Shown here: positions 24,943-54,873 of the stretch, piece by piece
Layout of the letters: each line of letters opens with the position of its first letter
How positions within the stretch are numbered: the first letter of the stretch is position 1
Assembly: GCA_050251055.1 (NCBI GenBank)
Contig: JBFWNL010000001.1
Span: 331,825 to 395,824 of the forward strand
Direction of reading: 5' to 3'
Origin: Bacteriovoracia bacterium
GTDB lineage: Bacteria; Bdellovibrionota; UBA1018; JBFWNL01
DNA: 64,000 bases
The notes under the pieces: generated by a model
What the model saw: only the letters and a program-made list of their open reading frames with translations
Told to the model about the DNA's origin: nothing
Databases searched by the model: none
Translations under genes and position numbers: made by a program

Positions 24943-25920
24943 ATGGCACTTTTAAGCGTTCAAGACTTGCGTACATATTTTCATACCCGCAACGGGGTCG
25001 TGAAGGCCGTGGACGGCATTTCCTTCGACCTGGAAAGGGGCGAAACGCTTGGCATCGTGGGCGAGAGCGGCTCCGGCAAATCAGTTTCGAATTACTCGAT
25101 CTTGAGCCTGATCCCCATGCCGCCTGGCCGCATCGAATCGGGTTCGGCCGTGTTCGACGGAGTCGACTTACTGAAATGTTCGAAGGATCAGCTCCGCAAG
25201 ATCCGCGGCAACCGAATTTCCATGATTTTCCAGGATCCCATGACCTGCCTAAATCCCTACCTCAAAGTAGGCTTTCAGATCATGGAGCCCCTACTCCTGC
25301 ATAAGCAGATGAACAAATTCGATGCCAGCAAGAAGGTGGTCGAAGCGCTCCGCCAAGTTGGGATCCGGGATCCCGAGGCACGCATGAATCAATACCCGCA
25401 CCAGTTCTCGGGCGGGATGCGGCAGCGCGTGATGATTGCCATGGCCCTCATCACCGAACCCGAGCTTCTAATCGCCGACGAACCGACGACCGCGTTGGAT
25501 GTGACCGTCCAAGCGCAAATCCTCGACCTGATCCGCAAGCTCCAGCGCGAAAAGGGCACCGCCGTCATCTTCATCACCCACGACTTAGGCGTAATCGCGA
25601 GCATGGCCAAGCGGGTCCTGGTCATGTACGCCGGCCGGGTGGCCGAAGCCGGAACGACGATGGATATCTTTAAGCGCCCTAAACACCCCTATACCAAGGC
25701 TCTCATGGCCTCAATTCCCGCGACCCATGCGCGCGGCGAAGAACTTTATACTATTCCGGGCATGCCGCCGGACGTATCGAAGAAAATTAATGGCTGCGCT
25801 TTCGCCCCCCGCTGTTCGTTCGCGCTCGCGACCTGCCGGGAGCGCGACCCCCGCGCGCTCGAGGTTGAAACCGCGCATCTTTCGGCCTGCTTACGTGTCC
25901 AGGAAGGAGCGGTGCTATGA
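24943..25920 (+). CDS. oppD: Oligopeptide ABC ATP-binding protein
   Basis: [29 protein letters not shown]-terminal Cys motif. Confidence 0.95.
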
Positions 25921-26939
25921 GTATCCCTACGGACGGCACGGCCAATCCCAACTTCTTGCAGCTCAAAGACGTCAAGACCTACTTCCCGATTACCTCCGGA
26001 TTATTCGTCCAGAAAGTCCGCGCAACGGTCAGGGCCGTCGACGGGGTCAATTTGACCGTCGCCAAGGGTGAGGTTCTGGGTTTGGTCGGGGAAAGCGGCT
26101 GCGGTAAATCCACCCTGGGCCGCACGATCATGCAGCTCATCCCCCCAACTGCGGGCAACGTGGAACTGGCGGGCGTTACCCTGAACACCTTGCCGCCGGA
26201 GCGACTCCGCACCGAACGGCCGCGCTTCCAGATGATCTTCCAGGACCCCTACTCGTCGCTCAACCCGCGCATGACGGTTTTCGACATCCTGGCCGAACCG
26301 CTGCTTTACCACCGCCGCGCTACCTCGGCTAACATCGCCGAAAAGGTTTCCACGCTCATGACGGAAGTGGGCCTGGCCCCACGCTTCATGAAGAAATACC
26401 CGCACGAGTTTTCGGGCGGCCAGCGTCAACGCATCGCTATCGCGCGGGCATTGGCTTTGGAACCTGAAGTAATCGTTGCCGACGAACCTGTCTCCGCTCT
26501 TGATGTCTCGATTCAATCGCAAATCCTGAACCTGCTCGTGCAGCTGACGCGCAAGCGCAACCTCACGATGATTTTTATTTCCCACGACCTATCGGTGATT
26601 AAGCATATCTCCGACCGTGTGGCCGTAATGTACCTGGGCAAGATCGTGGAGCTTGGGCGCACCGAAGAGATCTTTGCGGCCCCCAAACACCCGTACACCC
26701 AGGCCCTGCTCTCGGCGATCTCGCTGCCGGACCCGGAGGCAGAATCCAAGCGTAAGCGGATTCTCTTAGAAGGCGACCCGCCGTCGCCGATCAACCCACC
26801 TTCAGGGTGCGCCTTCCATCCCCGCTGCCCGCACGCGCGCGATTTCTGCGCGAAGCAGACGCCGAAGCTTGAAAACTTCCCGGCGCCCACGCACCACGAA
26901 GTGTCGTGCCTGCGCGCGCACGAAATCAATCCAGCCTAA
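25917..26939 (+). CDS. oppF: Oligopeptide ABC ATP-binding protein
   Basis: GESGCGKS, YPHEFSGGQRQR, PSPINPPSGCAFHPRC. Confidence 0.95.
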   Translation: MSIPTDGTANPNFLQLKDVKTYFPITSGLFVQKVRATVRAVDGVNLTVAKGEVLGLVGESGCGKSTLGRTIMQLIPPTAGNVELAGVTLNTLPPERLRTERPRFQMIFQDPYSSLNPRMTVFDILAEPLLYHRRATSANIAEKVSTLMTEVGLAPRFMKKYPHEFSGGQRQRIAIARALALEPEVIVADEPVSALDVSIQSQILNLLVQLTRKRNLTMIFISHDLSVIKHISDRVAVMYLGKIVELGRTEEIFAAPKHPYTQALLSAISLPDPEAESKRKRILLEGDPPSPINPPSGCAFHPRCPHARDFCAKQTPKLENFPAPTHHEVSCLRAHEINPA

Positions 26940-26953
26940 TAACTCTCCGCTCA

Positions 26954-27013
26954 GACGGGGGACGCCCATCCGTGGGCTCAATTGTTCAGCGCCCTCGTGG
27001 CCCGTGGATGCCC
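26954..27013 (-). repeat. Dispersed GGA-hairpin element, copy C (core only, arms degenerate)
   Basis: Reverse complement gggcatccacgggccacgagggcgctgaacaattgagcccacggatgggcgtcccccgtc aligns with the cores at ~27325 and ~54714. Confidence 0.7.
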
Positions 27014-27093
27014 AAATAAGTCCGCTTTTAGAAAGGACGATAGCCCTATGTTTGGCTACGGTTTTTATGACTTCAGAGTCGTGCGCGACGTGA

Positions 27094-27238
27094 GCAATTG
27101 TGCAGATGGTTAGTGGAATGGGGTTTCCCAAGGCCACAAATATTTTGCTGCACTTGTGGCCGGCGTATAAGACGGCACTAGCCACTGAAAGCGAGATTAG
27201 AGAGACCGCTGAAAAGCGGTTTCTCTAATCTCAATTGC
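27094..27238 (+). ncRNA. Candidate multi-stem structured RNA of unknown family
   Basis: Nested stems, an 18-bp hairpin with a GAAA tetraloop and a possible pseudoknot; G-U pairs work only on the + strand. Confidence 0.5.
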
Positions 27239-27290
27239 AAGCCGAACCTGGACAGCATATCCGTCCACGCTTCACATAAATCTGGGTATG

Positions 27291-27413
27291 CAGGATTCCC
27301 TGCTTTAAAAACTCGGACCGGCGGGGGTGTCCGCGGGCCAGGACGGCGCTGAGCGGTCAAGCGCATGGAAGCGCGTCCCCCGTCGGTCCGAGTTTTTAAA
27401 GGAGGGAATCCTG
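27291..27413 (+). repeat. Dispersed GGA-hairpin element, copy A (37-bp inverted arms)
   Basis: caggattccctgctttaaaaactcggaccggcggggg pairs with cccccgtcggtccgagtttttaaaggagggaatcctg around gcc-AGGAC-ggc and gcgc-ATGGAA-gcgc. Confidence 0.85.
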
Positions 27414-27424
27414 TCCAGCTAGAT

Positions 27425-29206
27425 TCACGCGGGAAAGCGGCAGATAAAGACGCTCCCCTGACCGGGAGTGCTCTCGACGGAGATGCTCCCACCGTGCCGT
27501 TGCATGATATGCTTGACGATCGCGAGCCCCAGCCCCGTGCCTCCCATCTCGCGCGAGCGGGCCTTGTCGATGCGGTAAAACCGCTCGAACAGGCGCCCTT
27601 GGTGCTCGGCCGGGATGCCGGGTCCGGTGTCGGACACCTTTAGAACCACGTCGCCCCGGATGCCCTCTTCCCAGCTCACGGAAATTTTTCCGCCACGTGG
27701 GGTATACTTCTTGGCGTTATCCAGGAGATTCACCAGCACCTGCTCCAAGCGACCGGGATCGGCATGCACCGTGGCCACGGGAATGTTTACATGCACCTGC
27801 TGGGCTTTCTCGCTAAAGCCCCCGCGAAGTTGCTCTAACACCCGGGAGGTTACCTGCTCCGTACTGACTTCGGCGCGATTCAGCGCTTCCGAAGACTCTA
27901 ACGAGGAAAGGTCGAGCAAATCGTTAATTAATGTCATGAGGCGGGCAGAATTTCGCGCCACGGCCTTCAGGTGATCGGGATCCAACGGCCGCCCGTCGGC
28001 CAGATCCTGGTTCAAGGTGTCCGTATATCCTTTGATCGCCGTCAGCGGGGTGCGCAGCTCATGGGAAACGTTAGCCACGAAGTCGATACGCATCTGCTCG
28101 GCGCGCTTGAGTTCGGTCACGTCGTGGAAGACCCCGACGGCGCCGTATACCTCACCACGGGAGCGGCGGAGCGGGGAAATCGCCACCGAGAAATAAAGCG
28201 GGTCATCCCCGCGGGGGCCCCGATTAAAGAACATCGCTTGGATAATCTGCGGCTGCCCCAGCCGCAGCGCCGAACGGAACGCGTCCAGCACCGCGGGCTC
28301 GCGAAAAGTCTCCCAGATCCGCTTTCCTTCCGTGAGCCCGTTTTCAGCCAAGATCGCCATGCGGCTGTTATAGAAAAGCGGGTTGCCTTCGAGGTCGATG
28401 GCCAAAATCGCGTCCGAAATAGCGCTCATGAGGGTCGCTTGCTGCTCGCGCTCCAGACTCAAGGCCTCCACCTTGGTCTGCAGATCCTTGCGAATACTGT
28501 CGATGGAGGTCTCGAGATCCGCCCACTCCCCATAAACGTCCCGCCGGAACTCCCGTTCGACGCCTTCCGACGCCAAGCTAGGATCGGCTTTCAATATGCT
28601 TTGGACCTGGCTGAAAACGTTATTCAGCGGCAACACCCAGGCCCGTCCCGTCCAAATAGCAAAGCCAAACAACGCCAGCGCAACGGCGATCAGGAAAAAG
28701 AAAAGTGAGGTGTCGTATACCCGCAAGGTGGCATCCAGCCTCGTCAACGGCGCGGCGACGCGCAAGACGGAAAGCTCATTACGCGCCTGCCGTTGGGCGC
28801 TGTACATCATGGGAAGGCCCAGCGTCTGGCTCTCGCGTACGTCCTGTCCGTAGCCATCCGTGAGCGCAGCTTGCACCTCGGGACGAGTCCCGTGATTCTG
28901 CATCTGTTCCGCTTTCTCGTGAGAATCACAATATACGCGCCCGTCCACGCCGATAACCGTGACACGCAAACCGGTGCCCTGGGTGACCGTCGTGCACCAC
29001 TCCAACGGCAGTGGCCAAGGCATCTGGTTGGCCACTCCCTGCAAGGTATCTTTGAGTTGGCTCTGAAACTGAATCGTGAACTGTTTCTTAAAGAAATAAT
29101 GCGCCGCCAGCCCTGACGCTCCCAAAGCCAGGAGCACCATGAAGGTCTGGGTCAAAACGACGCGGGAAAAGACCCGCCAGGAGAGCAGGGAGACCGTGGA
29201 TTTCAT
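27425..29206 (-). CDS. phoR: Phosphate regulon sensor kinase
   Basis: Two TM segments, PAS, DFVANVSHELRTPLT, FERFYRIDKARSREMGGTGLGL; in the pst operon. Confidence 0.92.
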   Translation of the reverse strand: MKSTVSLLSWRVFSRVVLTQTFMVLLALGASGLAAHYFFKKQFTIQFQSQLKDTLQGVANQMPWPLPLEWCTTVTQGTGLRVTVIGVDGRVYCDSHEKAEQMQNHGTRPEVQAALTDGYGQDVRESQTLGLPMMYSAQRQARNELSVLRVAAPLTRLDATLRVYDTSLFFFLIAVALALFGFAIWTGRAWVLPLNNVFSQVQSILKADPSLASEGVEREFRRDVYGEWADLETSIDSIRKDLQTKVEALSLEREQQATLMSAISDAILAIDLEGNPLFYNSRMAILAENGLTEGKRIWETFREPAVLDAFRSALRLGQPQIIQAMFFNRGPRGDDPLYFSVAISPLRRSRGEVYGAVGVFHDVTELKRAEQMRIDFVANVSHELRTPLTAIKGYTDTLNQDLADGRPLDPDHLKAVARNSARLMTLINDLLDLSSLESSEALNRAEVSTEQVTSRVLEQLRGGFSEKAQQVHVNIPVATVHADPGRLEQVLVNLLDNAKKYTPRGGKISVSWEEGIRGDVVLKVSDTGPGIPAEHQGRLFERFYRIDKARSREMGGTGLGLAIVKHIMQRHGGSISVESTPGQGSVFICRFPA

Positions 29207-29883
29207 TCCAACTGAATACGATAGCCGACGCCGCGGATGGTTTCCACGAAATCCCCGCAGACTCCGAGTTTCTTACGCAAACCAAAGACGTGGGTGTCGA
29301 TGGCGCGATCGATGACTTTCACCCCCTCGCCCTGAACGCAGTCGATCAACTTTTCCCGCGAAAGGACCCGGCCTTGGTTTCGCAGTAAAGCCGTGAGCAG
29401 CTTGAATTCGGAGGGGGTCAGCTCGATTTTATCCTGGCCACAGGCCACTTCGTGACGCTCGATGTTCATTACGAGCTGCCGGTGCCGAAGCTCATTGGCG
29501 CTCTCGAGCGAATTCTCCGGACCTGTTCGCTCGCCGCGGCGTAACAGGGCGCGCACGCGCGCCAGGAACACCGGTATATCGAAAGGCTTGGTGATGTAAT
29601 CATCCGCGCCAGCTTCCAGGCCAACGATAATATCGGCCGAATCCGCGCGGGCCGTCACCATCAAGATCGGACAGCGGCCGCGGTATTTCTTGCAAAGTTC
29701 CAAGCCCGTCAATCCCGGCAACATCCAATCGAATATCGCTAGCTGAAACGTCCCTTCGGCGAAGGCGCGGACGGCGTTCTCGCCGTCCGAAACGGCCGTC
29801 ACGTCCAGCCCTTCCCGCTTCAGGTGTAACACCAATAAGTCCTGAACGTCTTTCTCGTCTTCGACGACCAGGACTTTCTTCAA
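29203..29883 (-). CDS. phoB: OmpR/PhoB response regulator
   Basis: Receiver (DWMLP, GADDYITKPF) plus winged helix (ETIRGVGY); between phoU and phoR. Confidence 0.88.
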   Translation of the reverse strand: MKKVLVVEDEKDVQDLLVLHLKREGLDVTAVSDGENAVRAFAEGTFQLAIFDWMLPGLTGLELCKKYRGRCPILMVTARADSADIIVGLEAGADDYITKPFDIPVFLARVRALLRRGERTGPENSLESANELRHRQLVMNIERHEVACGQDKIELTPSEFKLLTALLRNQGRVLSREKLIDCVQGEGVKVIDRAIDTHVFGLRKKLGVCGDFVETIRGVGYRIQLE

Positions 29884-30560
29884 GGCGAGGCCCCACTTCC
29901 ACCGACATCTTGGGCATGGCGGATGTCCCGGCCCGTTACCACGTAAATCACGTCCTCGGCGATGTTGGTGGCGTGATCGCCCAGACGTTCGAGATTGCGG
30001 GCGATCAGGATGAGCGCCAAACCCGCATCGATACCCGCGGGCTTCTGTTTCATGATCGCCACTACATCGTTAAACACCTTGCGTTTCAGCTCATCCACCT
30101 TATCATCACGCTTCAGCACTTCGCGGGCCTGGGCTTCGCTCGCGGTGACGAAAGAGTCGATCGCGACCCGGACCATGACCTTCACTTCTTCGAACATCTG
30201 CGCCAAATCGATCAAGGGCTTGAGCTCGGGCTGCTTGAGGTAAAATTCCGCATTGTGGGCAATGTTCACCGCCTGGTCACCCATACGCTCGAGGTCGGTA
30301 TTGATTTTAATCACCGATACGATGAGCCTCAGATCGATGGCCATCGGCTGGTGCAACGCCAAAAGCTTCACGCAAGCGTCGTCCACCGCAATATGATCCT
30401 GGTTCACCTTTTTTTCGATCTCAAAGACTTCTTGGATGACGGCTAGGTCGCGGGATTTCAAACCCCGGATCGCGGTATCGATGGCCCGCTCGACGTATCC
30501 CGCCATGCCCACTAAAAGCTCGCGCAGCTCTCGAATCGAGTGCTCGAAATGTCTTTCCAT
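29880..30560 (-). CDS. phoU: Phosphate signalling protein PhoU
   Basis: QPMAIDLR, DLERMGD, LERLGDHATNIAE. Confidence 0.95.
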   Translation of the reverse strand: MERHFEHSIRELRELLVGMAGYVERAIDTAIRGLKSRDLAVIQEVFEIEKKVNQDHIAVDDACVKLLALHQPMAIDLRLIVSVIKINTDLERMGDQAVNIAHNAEFYLKQPELKPLIDLAQMFEEVKVMVRVAIDSFVTASEAQAREVLKRDDKVDELKRKVFNDVVAIMKQKPAGIDAGLALILIARNLERLGDHATNIAEDVIYVVTGRDIRHAQDVGGSGASP

Positions 30561-54673: not shown

Positions 54674-54806
54674 CCAGCCATCTCTCCGTTCTATTTTAAA
54701 ATCCGAGTCGCGGGGGTGTCCCGGCCCAGGATGGGAAAAAGGGTCAAGCCCATGGATGGGCGTCCCTCGTGAGTCGGATTTTAAAATAGAACGGAGAAAT
54801 GGCTGG
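54674..54806 (+). repeat. Dispersed GGA-hairpin element, copy B (43-bp inverted arms)
   Basis: ccagccatctctccgttctattttaaaatccgagtcgcggggg pairs with ccctcgtgagtcggattttaaaatagaacggagaaatggctgg around ccc-AGGAT-ggg and gccc-ATGGAT-gggc. Confidence 0.85.
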
Positions 54807-54873
54807 GGAACTAGGATTCGAACCTAGATAGCCAGAGTCAGAGTCTGGAGTCCTACCATTGGACGATTCCCCA
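54800..54873 (-). tRNA. tRNA-Gln (anticodon CTG)
   Basis: Minus strand TGGGGAATCGTCCAATGGTAGGACT-CCAGA-CTCTGAC-TCTGG-CTAT-CTAGGTTCGAATCCTAG-TTCCCCAGCCA; encoded CCA end. Confidence 0.97.

Follow-up and report, generated by a model that had tools for sequence, protein, structure and literature searches.

A 145-nt folded segment between converging oppF-like and PhoR/PnpS-like genes looks more like the middle of a terminator zone than a proven RNA gene

The window analyzed, a 64,000-nt stretch of the genome of a Bacteriovoracia bacterium, contains a 485-nt gap (26940-27424) that, according to the list of open reading frames (ORFs), separates two converging genes. On the left, the last gene of an opp-like operon encodes an OppF/DppF-type ABC ATPase (25917-26939), which scored 419.8 bits against the NCBIfam model of OppF (cut-off 540) and 398.8 bits against that of the dipeptide ATPase (cut-off 408). 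On the right, a PhoR/PnpS-like sensor histidine kinase (27425-29206) scored 319.2 bits (PnpS; cut-off 400) and 278.9 bits (PhoR; cut-off 334.2). As both flanking genes remained below the curated NCBIfam cut-offs, 'oppF' and 'phoR' are approximate names, so that the location between oppF and phoR given by an earlier reading of the letters alone (the sequence-only reading) is right as to the types of gene and loose as to their names. Since the flanking genes converge, no downstream gene, on either strand, is open to cis regulation. Upstream of the kinase gene, two overlapping 226-aa ORFs occurred (29203-30560, -), the one next to the kinase gene (29203-29883, -) scoring as an OmpR/PhoB-type response regulator below the curated cut-offs and the second one extending over 29880-30560 (-). 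The lower-GC patch described for this region was found indeed, with a GC content of 0.47-0.51 over 27000-27300 versus about 0.6-0.67 in the flanks. The genome assembly counted 3.77 Mb in 21 contigs and was 93.5% complete. Two DNA runs of a landfill metagenome, possibly the source of the stretch, contained it in one identical contig each, with zero variants inside 26948-27443; a third run gave no cover there. Among the sequencing runs listed as containing the stretch, none was of RNA. The features of the gap and its surroundings are the following:

25917-26939 (+): gene for the OppF/DppF-type ABC ATPase, last gene of the opp-like operon (NCBIfam, ORF list)
26954-27013 (-): repeat core copy A, about 15 nt past the oppF-like stop codon (blastn, nhmmer, model R2)
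27041-27066 (+): weak hairpin of 5 bp with a T5 run behind it (terminator scan)
27094-27100 / 27232-27238 (+): 7-bp closing stem (MFE fold of 145 nt)
27100-27105 (+): possible pseudoknot arm, 6-nt complement of 27148-27153 in a 14-nt loop (read from the sequence)
27107-27184 (+): multibranch domain, in which a 9-bp stem (27107-27115/27176-27184) encloses three hairpins (MFE fold, alone and in 287-nt context)
27119-27130, 27132-27161 and 27164-27174 (+): inner hairpins of the multibranch domain, the last one of 3 bp (MFE fold)
27193-27232 (+): 18-bp hairpin with GAAA loop, 17 Watson-Crick pairs and one G-U pair on the + strand (MFE fold)
27279-27425 (+): giant hairpin tipped by repeat core copy B (about 27322-27381) (fold, model R2)
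27425-29206 (-): gene for the PhoR/PnpS-like sensor histidine kinase, oriented towards the oppF-like gene (NCBIfam)
about 54695-54785 (+): third repeat copy of the window, belonging to a subfamily whose first hairpin is A-rich; a tRNA gene (54803-54873, -) lies about 20-30 nt away

On the + strand, the MFE fold of the candidate segment (27094-27238) reached -67.8 kcal/mol (z -8.54; none of 200 shuffles was as good) and comprised 51 pairs, including two G-U pairs (27110-27181 and 27204-27221). This fold is identical to the one drawn by the sequence-only reading, every stem of which was retrieved at its coordinates, and the 6-nt complement between 27100-27105 and 27148-27153, proposed as a possible pseudoknot, is present in the sequence as well. 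The - strand folded well too (-59.9 kcal/mol, z -7.34), so that the assignment to the + strand depends solely on the two imperfect pairs, both of which are G-U on that strand. Taken alone, the 18-bp hairpin (27193-27232) had a z of -9.27 on the + strand and -7.46 on the - strand, versus -2.75 and -3.40, respectively, for the multibranch part (27100-27190). Among 330 random 91-nt windows taken from ORF-free stretches of five contigs of the same genome, 30 (9.1%) had a z of -2.75 or lower and 19 had a z of -3.4 or lower, the shuffler used for this calibration scoring the candidate at -2.56. The term highly structured, used for the whole segment before, thus suits the hairpin and not the multibranch remainder; similarly, the 145 nt as a whole do fold better than their shuffles, but nearly all of this signal comes from the hairpin. 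The sequence-only reading had held that its proposal would fall if, among other things, the folding energy did not surpass that of shuffles or only the long hairpin were conserved as a simple terminator, and with a remainder equalled by about 9% of the intergenic windows the candidate comes close to that situation: only the long hairpin is beyond what is routine for the intergenic DNA of this genome. Within the multibranch domain, the 3-bp hairpin cgt/acg (27164-27174) did not fold when taken alone. Both halves of the closing stem contain the self-complementary hexamer CAATTG, and in the fold of 287 nt (27014-27300) this 7-bp stem and the gca/tgc stem gave way to other pairings; the 9-bp stem with the hairpins that it encloses persisted, as did the 18-bp hairpin.

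A genome-wide search (3.77 Mb) for hairpins with a stem of at least 14 bp, at most one mismatch and a loop of 3-8 nt retrieved 44 of them, among which the hairpin of the candidate ranked sixth in length. Of these hairpins, 12 had a T4 run at one foot and 11 had one at each foot (23 together), and the remaining 21 had none. The hairpin at 27193-27232 has no T4 run at either foot and belongs to the latter group; for that reason, it is not a canonical intrinsic terminator. It does form a GC-rich stem-loop downstream of a gene, as intrinsic terminators do, but no U run follows the stem, and the terminator scan did not list it. Following the GC core, its 3' arm is U/C-rich on the + strand (UUUCUCU), its 5' arm being purine-rich, and it is located 254 nt past the oppF-like stop codon and 193 nt past the kinase stop codon. 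GNRA loops, on one strand or the other, occurred in six of the 16 tetraloop hairpins of the genome-wide list. They are thus common on long hairpins here, and the GAAA loop, previously taken as a pointer to the + strand, is no mark of a special RNA. Between the oppF-like stop codon and the candidate, the only terminator-like site on the + strand found by the terminator scan was the weak hairpin at 27041-27066, the T-run of which pairs with upstream bases in the 287-nt fold. The longest hairpin of the genome (G000:C1:208365-208436) is located outside the window; it combines a stem of 32 bp with a loop of 8 nt. The inner part of this stem, together with the loop, looks similar to the 3' end of the repeat core described below, so that the hairpin possibly represents a copy that has collapsed or become palindromised.

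The candidate segment is flanked by two copies, inverted relative to each other, of a dispersed repeat, the GC-rich core of which counts about 60 nt and does not occur in Rfam. With nhmmer, 24 matches were obtained at E<=1e-3, and 21 full or near-full copies were retained, namely three in the window and 18 further in the genome (G000; loci L136-L153). The folds of the 21 copies show, for at least 15 of them (own count), a core carried by arms of about 30-45 bp that pair nearly perfectly and differ wholly between copies, so that armed copies make up hairpins of about 150 nt (about -82 to -111 kcal/mol). Copy B is a case in point, as its giant hairpin (27279-27425; -100.1 kcal/mol, z -11.2; 104.1 bits with R2) has arms that include an A5/T5-flanked stem and extend to the kinase stop codon. 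Copy A lacks the usual long flanking arms and reached only -50.4 kcal/mol when folded with its flanks; its left arm would fall within the oppF-like coding sequence, nearly all other copies having arms. When 17 copies and their 15-nt flanks were aligned, a three-way junction emerged, in which double-sided changes preserve the pairing in 24 of the 32 pairs, including four inside the conserved core. The covariance model R2, built from this alignment, matched 24 of 116 genomes of the same order at E<=0.001, including the genome of the window, and most of the 14 matches folded from other genomes turned out to be long and perfect hairpins that are specific to the copy and bear a related core at the tip. 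In addition, four MAG records of Bdellovibrionaceae/Bdellovibrionales contained a 22-letter motif taken from the second core hairpin, in three of them as giant hairpins; its occurrence in one Actinomycetota MAG, where it lacks the hairpin, was considered a chance match. According to a crude ORF map, 13 of the 21 copies are located between converging ORFs. Neither a Y1 (RAYT) transposase (PF01797) nor a reverse transcriptase (PF00078) gave any match in the genome, and a literature search on palindromic or intergenic repeats and small RNAs of Bdellovibrio found nothing relevant among the papers listed. Similarity to the repeat core was absent from 27030-27290 (nhmmer --max at E<=100), and R2 did not match the candidate. 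The earlier suggestion of an element-borne RNA is borne out in part, and unexpectedly, by the position between two inverted copies, but the segment is single-copy and unrelated to the repeat that flanks it.

As to known RNA families, searching the whole window against Rfam at the gathering thresholds returned nothing but the tRNA at 54803-54873, and ARAGORN found neither a tRNA nor a tmRNA in the candidate region, in agreement with the sequence-only reading, which could not match the segment to tRNA, 6S, SRP, tmRNA or common riboswitches and ribozymes. When the gap was searched at E<=10, the sole lead for the candidate was ar35 (RF02346), which remained below threshold (29.3 bits versus a gathering score of 45) and covered the full length of the model (positions 1-144), with an E value of 0.0012-0.0005 for the small region searched (0.0012 for the search of 581 nt). 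Many pairs of the first hairpin were non-canonical in this alignment. After removal of the 3' arm of the long hairpin (27060-27200), no ar35 match was left at E<=10, indicating that the score stems from the A-rich/U-rich hairpin; elsewhere in the genome of the window, the best score of the ar35 model was 18.5 bits. The accessible text of the description of ar35 reports eight members, all from Rhizobiales, in which hairpins 2 and 3 are conserved at the level of primary sequence (PMC3346310). Matches at E<=10 to the snaR-A, mir and VA models were hairpin-driven chance matches on the neighbouring giant hairpin. Ribozyme families were absent from the Rfam matches in the gap, even at E<=10.

Concerning gene signals, a promoter scan of 26800-27500 found no sigma-70-like sites. 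A 42-aa ORF (27100-27228, +) is open within the candidate, for which Pfam gave noise only and 1.84 billion protein representatives gave no match; no Shine-Dalgarno-like sequence was seen before either of its start codons. The other ORFs in the gap yielded nothing but Pfam noise.

The segment 27041-27278 is single-copy in the genome, and relatives were sought at several levels. The 485-nt gap had no blastn match in the nearest 40 genomes beyond the genome of the window itself. A covariance model made from the single candidate sequence and its MFE structure (R1) recovered its own locus only among 151 genomes of the phylum (own included) and, among 116 genomes of the same order (own included), its own locus besides a hairpin-only partial match (E 0.09). 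Among 80 metagenome loci that were fetched with the OppF-like protein (best identity 68%), the best R1 match scored 17.5 bits (E 0.061); this match and the one at E 0.09 were taken as chance. Phage and plasmid collections gave no blastn match to the candidate, and the exact 22-nt loop pattern had no matches in genome_contigs and viral_contigs. In 19 loci of kinase orthologues (at most 58% identity), examined with 1.5-kb flanks, the oppF-like gene was never alongside, indicating that the junction of the kinase and oppF-like genes is lineage-specific. The homologue search proposed for detecting covariation thus came out empty, with no relative in 115 same-order genomes, 150 genomes of the phylum and 80 metagenome loci. 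Because the nearest 40 genomes belong to the same order only, the set containing no relative of the same genus or family, and because the kinase orthologues are at most 58% identical, this absence of conservation is uninformative on function. It is a limit of the available genomes and not evidence against a function.

The reading that we tentatively prefer, with a confidence slightly short of even, is that the candidate represents folded sequence at the 3' end of the opp-like operon, in the zone between the converging genes. The 145-nt segment looks more like the middle of a 485-nt terminator zone than like a proven RNA gene, and if any element in it is functional, this would be the 18-bp GAAA hairpin. 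REP-type hairpins and non-canonical terminator hairpins block 3' exonucleases and/or slow RNA polymerase. We infer that transcription from the opp-like operon continues through the hairpin; read-through transcripts on the + strand would then fold it at their 3' end, where it may act as a barrier or stabiliser by blocking 3' exonucleases and/or slowing down RNA polymerase. The neighbouring giant hairpin with its A5/T5 feet may terminate the kinase transcript, and the multibranch fold would be 3'-UTR sequence with a predicted structure within the normal range of the intergenic DNA of this genome, in a terminator zone that would also have received two copies of the dispersed hairpin-tip repeat. 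The convergence of the genes, the concentration of the energy signal in the hairpin (z -9.27 versus -2.75 for the rest), the lack of promoter-like sites in 26800-27500, and the U/C-rich 3' arm together with the two G-U pairs on the + strand are all consistent with this. The same holds for the regular occurrence of long hairpins, GNRA-looped ones among them, in this genome (44 with stems of at least 14 bp; 23 with T-runs) and for the gap being a landing site of hairpin elements that prefer gene ends (13 of the 21 copies, on the crude ORF map). Against it count the lack of a T4 run at the feet of the hairpin, the distance of 254 nt from the oppF-like stop codon, which is far for a terminator, and the fact that transcription across the hairpin is an assumption. 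In addition, a 9-bp stem with hairpins and a 6-nt loop complement exceed the needs of a plain spacer, a z of -2.75 still being in the top 9%. A first alternative is a lineage-specific small RNA (sRNA) on the + strand, transcribed on its own or cut from the opp-like 3' UTR, with the multibranch domain as its functional body and the 18-bp hairpin as its 3' end, as the sequence-only reading saw it. This alternative is conceivable but rather unlikely. The MFE fold equals the model drawn before (z -8.5), both the multibranch domain and the hairpin survive in the 287-nt context, and the 6-nt loop complement could form a pseudoknot, but the fold of the body is unexceptional (30 of the 330 intergenic windows equal it). 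On the + strand, the two imperfect pairs are both G-U, although two such pairs fall on one strand by chance in about 1 in 4 cases (own estimate). The full-length, sub-threshold match to the sRNA model ar35 (E 0.0012, 581-nt search) depends on the hairpin, and the absence of coding support for the 42-aa ORF (0 of 1.84 billion representatives; Pfam noise) has to be set against the lack of both a promoter-like site and a U-tail and of any homologue in 115 same-order genomes, 150 genomes of the phylum and 80 metagenome loci. For the wider proposal of an uncharacterised non-coding RNA (ncRNA), ribozyme or element-borne RNA, which was put forward from the letters alone, the sole support found was the fold itself, and the proposal may or may not hold. 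A more elaborate version, namely a lineage-restricted, independently folding ncRNA that would consist of a pseudoknotted three-hairpin body and the 18-bp GNRA hairpin and would be unique cargo between the inverted repeat copies, being either a 3'UTR-derived opp regulator or an RNA tied to the repeat, is decidedly improbable.

Alternatively, the segment may be a DNA-level feature without RNA function, either a palindrome or a hairpin element's remnant or empty site, located in a decaying low-GC spacer, which we regard as unlikely. As a palindrome, it would have been made or perfected by the same process that is behind the copy-specific arms in this genome, for instance template switching. The near-perfect, copy-specific arms of about 30-45 bp, seen in 15 or more of the 21 repeat copies, show that long palindromes come into being or are maintained at the gene ends of this genome, and the candidate is located between two inverted copies, folds well on both strands, has the GC dip mentioned (0.47-0.51 versus about 0.6-0.67) and carries one of the 21 of 44 long hairpins that lack T-runs. 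However, no similarity to the repeat core was detectable in it (nhmmer --max at E<=100; R2), it is single-copy, and no mobility enzyme accompanies it, with no matches for PF01797 and PF00078 in the 93.5%-complete genome. A small protein gene and a retron-type or ribozyme RNA, taken together, have a very low probability. The 42-codon frame (27100-27228, +) is open, but the protein search, Pfam and the missing Shine-Dalgarno-like sequence argue against its being a gene. Retron ncRNAs combine a closing stem and short hairpins with a long hairpin, an anatomy that the candidate loosely recalls; yet the gene downstream is the converging kinase gene and the whole 93.5%-complete genome has no match for the reverse transcriptase PF00078. 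A ribozyme is disfavoured by the absence of Rfam ribozyme families from the gap even at E<=10. Finally, distant membership in ar35 (RF02346), an sRNA family of alphaproteobacteria, can practically be dismissed. The full-length model match of the candidate (1-144; 29.3 bits; E 0.0012-0.0005) falls below the gathering score of 45, disappears at E<=10 in the absence of the long hairpin's 3' arm and contains many non-canonical pairs in the first hairpin; moreover, the eight members in the accessible text of PMC3346310 are all from Rhizobiales, and the host of the candidate belongs to the Bdellovibrionota, a different phylum. Such a sub-threshold, hairpin-dependent match in the wrong phylum effectively refutes membership. 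A small remainder of the probability goes to explanations other than those given here.

The candidate serves as a caution for now, as a very low folding z can come from one long hairpin, and such gene-end hairpins are routine in this genome. If RNA data were to reveal a discrete transcript, it would be a first sRNA candidate for an uncultured lineage of Bdellovibrionota, which would be of modest interest. The flanking giant-hairpin family is worth more attention than the candidate. It combines a conserved three-way tip with locus-specific arms, occurs in many genomes of the order and comes with no recognisable transposase or reverse transcriptase here, and it raises the testable question how locus-specific palindromes arise and what reads the conserved tip.

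Among the known systems, ar35 resembles the candidate in length (about 140 nt) and in having a 3' hairpin with a U-rich arm that pairs to an upstream A-rich arm; it differs in that the candidate lacks a promoter-like site and a U-tail, scores 29.3 bits in a hairpin-dependent way and belongs to another phylum. The giant-hairpin repeat shares the intergenic zone, the strong hairpins and the location at gene ends with the candidate, but has arms of about 30-45 bp and a 60-nt core, versus an 18-bp stem and a 4-nt loop in the candidate, which is single-copy. REP/REPIN elements with a RAYT were rejected, the candidate being single-copy and PF01797 having no matches in the genome. Compared with non-canonical terminator hairpins and REP-like stabilising hairpins, the hairpin of the candidate differs by its lack of a U-run, its distance of 254 nt from the stop codon and, unlike REP, its single copy, its function being putative. 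It resembles them as a long, GC-cored hairpin between converging genes, with a purine-rich 5' arm and a U/C-rich 3' arm, and it shares its GNRA loop with other long hairpins of this genome.
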